Positions 10,345 through 11,055 of a stretch of DNA of 64,000 nucleotides are shown one piece after another. The notes beneath the pieces are model-generated. The model saw nothing but the letters and a program-made list of their open reading frames with translations. It ran no database searches and was not told where the DNA came from. The DNA lies in NCBI RefSeq assembly GCF_057098645.1, contig NZ_CM169472.1. One strand, given 5' to 3'. The translations under genes and the position numbers were made by a program. Numbering within the stretch: position 1 is the first letter of the stretch; the number at the start of each line of letters is the position of its first letter.

Positions 10345-10360
10345 TGACAGGTGTTAGATT

Positions 10361-10460
10361 GCCTGATGCGCTACGCTTATCAGGCCTACGAAGAGCGTGC
10401 AATATATTGATTTTGCAAGATTGTGTAGGCCGGATAAGGCGTTTACGCCGCATCTGGCAT
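10361..10460. repeat. REP/BIME palindromic repeats
   Basis: gcctgatgcgctacgcttatcaggcctac ... gtaggccggataaggcgtttacgccgcatctggc. Confidence 0.6.
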
Positions 10461-10560
10461 GAACAGTGTGCATTTTGGCAATAAATCTGAAACCAACTGT
10501 CATGTCGGTTTTTTAAAGGCCGAAGGTGGTAAACCTTCGGCCTTAGCGACGTTTCCTCAG

Positions 10561-10644
10561 TTATTCAATAAACTGACGGATCAGTTCCAGCAGCGCGATT
10601 AGCGCCTTAAGAACGATGAGAACTTTATCGAGAAAAGTTTTCAT
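10561..10644 (-). CDS. Candidate type I toxin, 27-aa TisB/DinQ-like small membrane peptide (MKTFLDKVLIVLKALIALLELIRQFIE)
   Basis: Hand-translated minus-strand ORF ATG(10644)...TAA(10561); GGGAG SD 6 nt upstream; amphipathic hydrophobic helix; core ALIALLELIR matches my recollection of DinQ; below the 60-aa cutoff of the ORF track. Confidence 0.55.
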   Translation of the reverse strand: MKTFLDKVLIVLKALIALLELIRQFIE

Positions 10645-10869
10645 CCGTTGCTCCCTTAAGGGAGAAAGACAATCACAGCTTACCCTTACGTTGCCTGTAA
10701 CTATGATTTTCTTCATGTGCTAGATGAGGACTGCCTCTCTCCAAATTAGAGCACCAGAATCAGCACCACCTGTATCCTGACCAGGACTTAAAAGTACTTT
10801 TCCGCACTGCGGTAATCCCTTGAGGCAGTATCACTACTAGCGTCGGGATTGTATCGCCAACATAGCTGT

Positions 10870-10898
10870 TTGAATATGTAGGCATCCTGACTTATAAT
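10870..10898 (+). promoter_or_regulatory. Near-consensus sigma70 promoter (TTGAAT-17-TATAAT) for the candidate antitoxin sRNA
   Basis: ttgaat at 10870-10875 and tataat at 10893-10898 with 17-bp spacer. Confidence 0.5.
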
Positions 10899-10904
10899 TC
10901 ACTT

Positions 10905-10990
10905 GCTAGATGAGGACTGTTTCATTTCTGCCCGGAACCACCAAGTCTTGGGCGGAAAAAATAAAAAAACCGACTGTCATGTCGGTTTTT
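10905..10990 (+). ncRNA. Candidate antisense sRNA (IstR/AgrB-like antitoxin), about 86 nt
   Basis: Starts about 7 nt after the -10; 5' end tgctagatgaggactg (10904-10919) is a direct repeat of 10718-10733, so it is complementary to the toxin 5' UTR; ends in hairpin ccgac-tgtcat-gtcgg followed by a T7 tract. Confidence 0.5.
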
Positions 10991-11055
10991 TTATATCTGT
11001 ATTCTGGTGCAACCATTCTGTTCTCACGACAATCGCCGTTTCAGAATACCGCCCA

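Follow-up and report, generated by a model that had tools for sequence, protein, structure and literature searches.

The junction between the core genes ybbP and mnmH of E. coli is, with high probability, a multi-allelic site at which the whole content is swapped between strains. The allele found in the window (the whole 64-kb stretch of DNA analyzed here) very probably consists of a REP pair followed by a DinQ-like toxin-antitoxin module that resembles dinQ/agrB. Homologous recombination within the core genes on either side is the most likely route of exchange between alleles.

The left border of the junction is formed by ybbP, which encodes an ABC transporter permease (7930..10344, plus strand, ORF of 804 aa), and the right border by mnmH, also named selU or ybbB (11056..12150, minus strand, ORF of 364 aa). 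In the ORF listing, the two genes are separated by a gap of 711 bp at 10345-11055, in which the longest ORF has 51 aa. The RefSeq genome of E. coli O145 RM9872 is 100% identical over the stretch and is annotated as ybbP / dinQ / mnmH. The ORF listing and this annotation agree with the gene ends at 10344 and 11056 and with the gap of about 0.7 kb given in a preliminary description of this DNA, which had also named a rhsD-ybbC-ylbH-ybbD cluster at this place in K-12. This was accurate: K-12 MG1655 carries rhsD-ybbC-ylbH-ybbD-ylbI-ylbG, 7,301 bp in total, between ybbP and selU/mnmH, and alignment to K-12 does not bring ybbP directly beside mnmH.

We compared the window and K-12 across the junction. 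Identity amounts to 97.9% on the ybbP side, where it ends at 10350, and to 98.8% on the mnmH side, where it restarts at 11054, which places the homology breakpoints a few bases from both stop codons. Between these points, a sensitive blastn search (word size 7) found no sequence shared by the window spacer and the K-12 insert. The K-12 state can thus be ruled out as the window spacer plus a simple insertion, since the gap holds no common sequence, and replacement of the whole spacer, from stop codon to stop codon, is favored over insertion. The window and K-12 states are alternative fillings of one slot; as this is a structural observation, a chance model is not applicable to it.

The Rhs-free configuration proposed for this strain holds for the gap and for the rest of the window. 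Searches by tblastn and blastn with RhsD, YbbC, the Hcp-Tle1 protein and the DNA of the 7.3-kb K-12 insert gave zero matches across the 64 kb, no Rhs core ORF (YD repeats, C-terminal tip and immunity gene) was found between ybbP and mnmH, and neither a Rhs tip nor an orphan Rhs fragment is present in the window. Rhs cores are multi-copy repeats able to break short-read assemblies, and a short junction could arise artificially if a repeated Rhs element were collapsed or dropped during assembly. We regard the chance of such an artifact here as negligible, since the same spacer is found in 1,314 complete, closed genomes and again, independently, in the GTDB species representative L013, and since the sequence that links ybbP to mnmH is unique and unbroken.

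The 1,314 closed genomes belong to a survey of the junction in 5,426 complete E. coli genomes, in 5,420 of which the flanks were found. The K-12-type ybbP-rhsD junction is present in 2,879 of the 5,426, and the flanks lie at most 1 kb apart in 1,899; the 1,314 genomes mentioned above are those with at least 80% of the window spacer. A further allele, found in 574 genomes, consists of a gene for a 667-aa protein in which Hcp is joined to a Tle1-like phospholipase domain, plus two or three DUF2931 genes (hereafter Hcp-Tle1). Other short forms, either REP-only or scars, account for ~585 genomes; REP-only spacers measuring 130-240 bp are among them, as is a 58-bp hybrid. Another ~68 genomes fall outside these classes, IS insertions such as that of strain E2348/69 among them. 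The same pair of core genes therefore flanks several unrelated contents, as expected of a hotspot. The preliminary description had referred to a known hotspot for accessory DNA, and this is justified both by the literature, in which the site is the Rhs "position 3" located between ybbA/ybbP and ybbB (Jackson et al., 2009; PMC2935791), and by the presence of at least four contents among the 5,426 genomes. In the literature on rhsD or dinQ with ybbP, we found no paper on the allele set of the ybbP-mnmH junction.

The spacer of the window is itself composite. Its left part (10345..10472) is of an ancestral type and contains a REP-like inverted pair (BIME-like, ~10360-10470; inverted repeats I1 and I3). 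This part gives sub-threshold Rfam matches to the REP-derived families naRNA4 and ES036, and 11-50 similar places are found per E. coli genome, in every genome. It is 92% identical to the entire left part of the REP-only spacer of strain Nissle and is also found in E. albertii, the REP-only spacers being 140 bp long in Nissle and 243 bp in E. albertii. At the other end, CAGAATACCGCCCA (11042..11055) is what remains of the right side of the ancestral-type spacer and matches the right end of both REP-only spacers. The 569 bp that lie between these two parts (10473..11041) form the DinQ-like toxin/Agr sRNA module and are absent from such "empty" junctions: the empty sites of Nissle and E. albertii read GTGCA immediately followed by CAGAAT, and the 569 extra bases of the window fall exactly between the two motifs. 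Close to the left edge of the module lies one copy of a 25-nt direct repeat (family D1; 10490..10514, plus strand), a decayed copy of the Agr terminator that is 96% identical to 10967-10991. When read on the minus strand (10511..10490), it provides a second terminator-like hairpin beyond the toxin gene. The REP elements, toxin/sRNA candidate and terminators that had been noted in the gap correspond to REP-like palindromes, a toxin ORF, an AgrB-family sRNA and terminator-like hairpins. The "TA-like" module assigned to the junction can be kept with a more specific identity, as a type I toxin that is recognizably DinQ-like (dql) and is accompanied by a single Agr sRNA. RefSeq already labels this module dinQ.

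The predicted toxin is encoded on the minus strand by an ORF of 27 aa, MKTFLDKVLIVLKALIALLELIRQFIE plus stop (10561..10644; codons 10644..10564, stop 10563..10561). This ORF aligns codon by codon with the 27-aa DinQ of K-12, and its sole difference from the copy in Escherichia sp. E1V33 is synonymous. The frame given in RefSeq is longer (51 aa, 10561-10716) and is probably misleading, the likely product being the peptide of 27 aa. A perfect palindrome read from the sequence, CTCCCTTAAGGGAG (10651..10664, minus strand, inverted repeat I6), holds the Shine-Dalgarno GGGAG, 6 nt 5' of the toxin ATG. In the minimum-free-energy fold of the predicted toxin mRNA, computed from an assumed 5' end, this palindrome closes into a hairpin, and the fold as a whole has z = -5.6 relative to shuffles. 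Just past the stop codon, a G+C-rich hairpin (10516..10544, minus strand; I5, 12-nt arms, 100% complementary) marks the predicted 3' end of the toxin mRNA and is also kept in the K-12 and plasmid modules.

The toxin promoter was located by alignment only. Its putative -10 box, TACAAT (10853..10848, minus strand), aligns with TATGAT in K-12 and TATAAT in plasmids in a five-way alignment (A2), and the predicted transcript would start near 10841 and extend over ~326 nt. A pairwise alignment (A1) had placed the -10 at TAGTGA, a poor box, and this candidate was abandoned when the five-way alignment moved the -10 to TACAAT. The promoter is weak: it matches the consensus at 8 of 12 positions, and because of its poor -35 a sigma-70 consensus scan of 10300-11100 did not detect it. 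We also searched 10345-11055 for a LexA box (CTG-N10-CAG) and found none, the best 20-mer reaching 11 of 20 consensus positions; as a positive control, the K-12 box was recovered (L010:1983, 15/20). Since the LexA box is lacking from the spacer, "damage-inducible" would simply be a name transferred to this toxin copy. The RefSeq name "damage-inducible toxin DinQ" is probably misleading for the ybbP-mnmH copy, which is probably not induced by the SOS response.

On the opposite strand, a promoter-like sequence TTGAAT-17-TATAAT (10870..10898, plus strand; 10 of 12 consensus positions) is the sole sigma-70-like site found by the consensus scan in 10300-11100. It lies upstream of a single predicted AgrB-family antisense sRNA of ~90 nt (10904..10994, plus strand), which the Rfam family RF02891 AgrB matches over its full length at 10906-10994 (53.6 bits for a gathering score of 40, E = 8.8e-8). 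The sRNA ends in an intrinsic terminator with a 14-bp stem (10961-10994), and its fold has a predicted energy of -34.6 kcal/mol (z = -5.6). Its 5' end forms a direct repeat (D2) with a segment of the toxin mRNA leader (10712..10740, minus strand), which we take as its target: the two share 16 nt of perfect complementarity, and 19 Watson-Crick plus 5 G-U pairs leave 24 of 26 positions paired.

To score this pairing, full-length RNA duplex prediction gave -78.9 kcal/mol compared with -47 kcal/mol for shuffles, but the duplexes were unrealistically long, and this approach was replaced by ungapped 26-nt counts. The counts were arranged in a 5-by-6 matrix of targets against sRNAs from five modules (the window, K-12 and three plasmids). 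Targets and sRNAs co-vary, in that each target has its longest pairing run with its own sRNA. For the window target, this run is 19 with the cognate sRNA compared with at most 9 with non-cognate sRNAs, and the 5' end of K-12 AgrB pairs weakly with it, with a longest run of 7. This co-variation is the best available evidence here that the pairing may be functional and specific, and it indicates that the window module would be insulated from K-12-type AgrB. In K-12, AgrA fails to repress dinQ despite a complementarity of 25/31 (PMC3567139), so repression at the window module is not guaranteed; 16 perfect bases and the additional wobble pairs may or may not be sufficient for it.

Taken as a whole, dinQ/agrB and the plasmid-borne dqlB/agrB are the most likely models for how the module acts. 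The toxin mRNA would be transcribed from the minus strand by a weak promoter devoid of a LexA operator, would have its Shine-Dalgarno shut in a hairpin and would code for a 27-aa membrane peptide. The sRNA would be transcribed from the plus strand by a strong promoter and would block toxin expression by pairing of its 5' end with the mRNA leader. By analogy with these characterized systems, we infer that the module is transcribed, that its peptide is toxic and that its sRNA represses it. K-12 DinQ is described as a single-span inner-membrane peptide whose primary transcript is translationally closed and whose leader pairs with the sRNA (PMC3567139, PMC5066626). Toxicity of the peptide and its neutralization by the sRNA have been reported for K-12 DinQ (Weel-Sneve et al., 2013; PMC3567139) and for DqlB of pOXA-48, where dqlB/agrB is an addiction module and pairing was proven by compensatory mutations (PMC12365149).

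The assignment to this family is supported by several features. The toxin peptide scores 40.9 bits with the NCBIfam model NF041472 (toxin_DinQ, cutoff 30), compared with 54.0 bits for K-12 DinQ. It falls below the cutoff of the DqlB model (24.5 vs 35), and Pfam has no model for it. As in DinQ/AgrB-type systems, a DinQ-family peptide is combined with an AgrB sRNA on the opposite strand, complementarity at the sRNA 5' end and a closed Shine-Dalgarno, whereas two hallmarks of DinQ proper, the LexA operator and the location at gor-arsR with two sRNAs, are missing. The module aligns, at a mean column identity of 67%, with that half of the K-12 gor-arsR region which carries dinQ-agrA (A1), as well as with plasmid dql modules (A2). 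It shares with K-12 dinQ-agrA-agrB the order and orientation of its elements (terminator, 27-aa ORF, closed Shine-Dalgarno, long leader with an sRNA target and divergent Agr sRNA that has a promoter and a terminator to itself) and the approximate length of the toxin transcript, ~330 nt in K-12 and ~326 nt as predicted in the window. It differs in its position between ybbP and mnmH and in its single sRNA, while the K-12 locus lies at gor-arsR with both agrA and agrB and has a LexA operator. The N-terminus and C-terminus of the two toxins also differ, and AgrB complementarity is 30/31 in K-12 compared with 16 perfect nt in the window module. The canonical dinQ-agrAB locus was found separately in 5,422 of the 5,426 genomes.

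Kristiansen et al. (2016; PMC5066626) named the dql (dinQ-like) genes, of which 14 sequences were published. According to these authors, such genes are found on the chromosomes and plasmids of Enterobacteriaceae, often have an N-terminus annotated too long and often co-occur with dinQ. The window locus fits this description, given the 51-aa frame in RefSeq and the near-universal canonical dinQ locus. Relatives whose toxin and leader DNA is 68-72% identical are found on 1,640 plasmids, and the plasmid dqlB/agrB modules have the same architecture as the window module, Agr sRNA included. Unlike these, the window copy lies on the chromosome, where it occurs once and always at one junction. The two other toxin systems of the site are distinct from it. 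For the RhsD element of position 3, presence or absence at this junction is documented, and the window carries a different and far smaller toxin system. Orphan Hcp-ET islands (Hcp with a Tle1-like phospholipase and DUF2931/Tli1-like immunity) occupy the same junction elsewhere and have no match in the window; Hcp-ET is a type VI secretion effector, unrelated to the window module in both sequence and mechanism.

Degraded versions of the module are found in several lineages. A 604-bp variant carries a 108-nt deletion between the microhomologies GATGAGAACT and GATGAGGACT, which takes out the start codon, the Shine-Dalgarno and most of the sRNA target. Strain E2348/69 has an IS481-family insertion adjoining the toxin, and a divergent Escherichia genome (L014) has a 234-bp junction that corresponds to the window minus everything between the 25-nt repeats at 10490-10514 and 10967-10991. 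Such inactivated versions in several lineages indicate that the module is dispensable. They also raise the question of whether the module is a decaying relic, in which the toxin would be unexpressed and the sRNA left with no target to repress. Independent inactivations are indeed common (the 604-bp variant, the IS481 insertion, a scar), the start-codon region is missing in ~180 of the 1,314 spacer carriers, the toxin promoter has no consensus -35 and the stretch of perfect complementarity is short. Nevertheless, we consider decay quite unlikely. The segment spanning the toxin start and leader (10600-10745) is intact in 1,135 genomes, with at least 99% identity in 1,132 of them; it is single-copy throughout, and none of the plasmids in the E. 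coli set carries it. The ORF is intact, as are the Shine-Dalgarno hairpin, both terminators and the near-consensus promoter of the sRNA. In a lineage diverged by ~3.5%, the one change within the ORF is synonymous, and the co-variation of cognate target and sRNA across paralogues likewise argues for a module that may still be functional.

We further considered how the site evolved. The two core genes are neighbors outside Escherichia too. There, the gap between them contains a gene for an outer-membrane protein, either alone or together with an ABC transporter (1.4 or 4.1 kb), or, in a few genera, is nearly empty. Within Escherichia, E. albertii has REP sequences only, Escherichia sp. E1V33 the same dql module and E. 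whittamii the Hcp-Tle1 allele. Jackson et al. (2009) inferred that Rhs was gained at position 3 after the split from B2-type strains (PMC2935791). With this timing, the simplest view is that the Rhs-free state is the older one at this site and that the dql module was gained separately, into a REP-only spacer, the direction of gain and loss being drawn from few outgroups.

The history of this particular strain may be less direct. O157:H7, which is commonly considered to be related to O145:H28, carries the K-12-type rhsD junction, and because of this allele a re-replacement may be part of the strain's history. The Rhs-free state could accordingly be a secondary loss, in which an ancestor had the rhsD island and later saw it deleted or replaced, possibly by recombination with the dql allele. 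A recent import would also fit the low divergence of the spacer: the segment 10246-11106 has 5 mismatches with Escherichia sp. E1V33, while the flanks differ by 3.4% in ybbP and 5.4% in mnmH. However, the window retains no Rhs remnant of any kind, its REP part and spacer ends are common to E. albertii and to B2 strains that have no Rhs here, and the late gain at position 3 proposed by Jackson et al. (PMC2935791) points the other way. We therefore see secondary loss as possible but on balance somewhat improbable, and retain the Rhs-free state as the older condition. Secondary loss would alter the history of the site and leave the identity of the feature unchanged.

The same pattern of divergence is seen in E2348/69, with a spacer at 98.5% identity compared with 96% for the flanks. 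Low divergence of the spacer may mean that the allele has spread recently by short recombination tracts, or that both strands are under strong constraint. Sliding identity profiles show that the 3' half of ybbP is more diverged in B2-type strains, and no clean recombination breakpoints were seen in the profiles of the flanks. A more speculative reading, which we consider unlikely at present, is that the junction acts as a dedicated "toxin slot" in which Rhs, Hcp-Tle1 and DinQ-like systems are mutually exclusive and the dql allele spreads among Escherichia lineages on tracts of ~0.86 kb. Spread on such tracts would lead to ~99% spacer identity despite flanks that are 3.5-5.5% apart. If this were true, the type I module may not be a housekeeping stress gene but a selfish or stabilizing element in competition for the slot.

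All the components of this junction have been described before: Rhs position 3 (Jackson et al., 2009), the dql family (Kristiansen et al., 2016), the AgrB RNA family and the RefSeq annotation. The state of the junction in the window is an ordinary, well-populated polymorphism of modest interest. The alternation of Rhs, Hcp-Tle1 and a type I toxin at one junction is a tidy case of cassette exchange at a hotspot and introduces no new principle. Added interest comes from the fact that three toxin systems alternate here, from a "damage-inducible" label that is probably misleading and from the unusually low divergence of the spacer. The value of the finding lies mainly in annotation and comparison, as 0.7 kb of non-coding-looking DNA is one allele of the site and would encode a small toxin and its antisense RNA. 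About one in five complete E. coli genomes would thereby carry a second, insulated DinQ-type module.

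In the dinQ-like spacer, RefSeq annotates a 51-aa frame as 'damage-inducible type I toxin DinQ' (window 10561-10716, minus strand); the likely product, judging from alignment with K-12, is a 27-aa peptide starting at 10644. No LexA box was found in the window's spacer. The toxin and the Agr sRNA would be transcribed from a divergent promoter pair at 10848-10898, with a -10 element TACAAT on the minus strand for the putative toxin promoter and TTGAAT-17-TATAAT on the plus strand for Agr. The -35 regions of the two promoters overlap, and they could therefore compete for RNA polymerase.

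The module is disrupted in several strains. A recurrent 108-nt deletion (within window 10615-10732), seen in the 604-bp spacers of comparison loci L004 and L008, lies between the microhomologies GATGAGAACT and GATGAGGACT; it takes out the start codon and Shine-Dalgarno sequence of the toxin, together with most of the target of the sRNA. Subtracting the counts puts the number with this deletion at roughly 180 among the 1,314 genomes carrying the spacer; in one of these, RefSeq nonetheless annotates a 25-aa 'dinQ'. In E. coli E2348/69, an IS481-family element (transposase at 12585-13631 of locus L003) has inserted into the module after spacer position 526, with the toxin leader on one side and the Agr sRNA on the other, so that the toxin is cut off from its sRNA or from its promoter region. 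A shorter junction of 234 bp (L014, 10598-10836) is found in a GTDB representative that bears the label E. coli SCPM-O-B-8794 and shares about 94% identity with the window. It corresponds to the window's spacer minus everything between 25-nt direct repeats at 10490-10514 and 10967-10991, and represents either the scar left by a deletion or the site as it was before the 477-bp core was gained by a Campbell-type event.

We also compared the divergence of the spacer with that of its flanking genes. Between the window and Escherichia sp. E1V33 (L013), window positions 10246-11106 show 5 mismatches in 861 bp, while the core genes ybbP and mnmH differ by 3.4% and 5.4%, respectively. The spacer of E2348/69 is likewise less diverged from the window than the adjoining core genes. 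This low divergence is consistent with a recent spread on short tracts or, alternatively, with strong constraint. Separately, in a comparison of E2348/69 and E. coli 4/0 with the window over the last 1.5 kb of ybbP, the 3' half of the gene shows an unusually low identity (93-95%) of B2-type or Hcp-allele strains to the window or K-12, lower than in neighboring segments.

A third allele at the ybbP-mnmH junction, found in 574 complete E. coli genomes, consists of a gene for a 667-aa Hcp with a fused Tle1-like phospholipase domain and, after it, two or three genes of the DUF2931 (Tli1-like) type (E. coli 4/0, L011 16669-20671; E. whittamii, L016 10785-14112). The 58-bp junction of E. coli N68 (L006, 1001-1058) is a hybrid, and because its left end matches the terminator half of the Hcp allele and its right end the REP-only allele, sequence comparison suggests deletion or recombination between alleles.

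Outside Escherichia, in Enterobacter, Citrobacter and many other genera, the ybbP-mnmH gap (L045, 10782-11927; L030, 10787-14727) holds a gene for a 377-381-aa outer-membrane protein with a weak match to the Pfam Autotransporter beta-domain, either alone or together with a three-gene ABC transporter. These outer-membrane protein and transporter genes have been lost in Escherichia.
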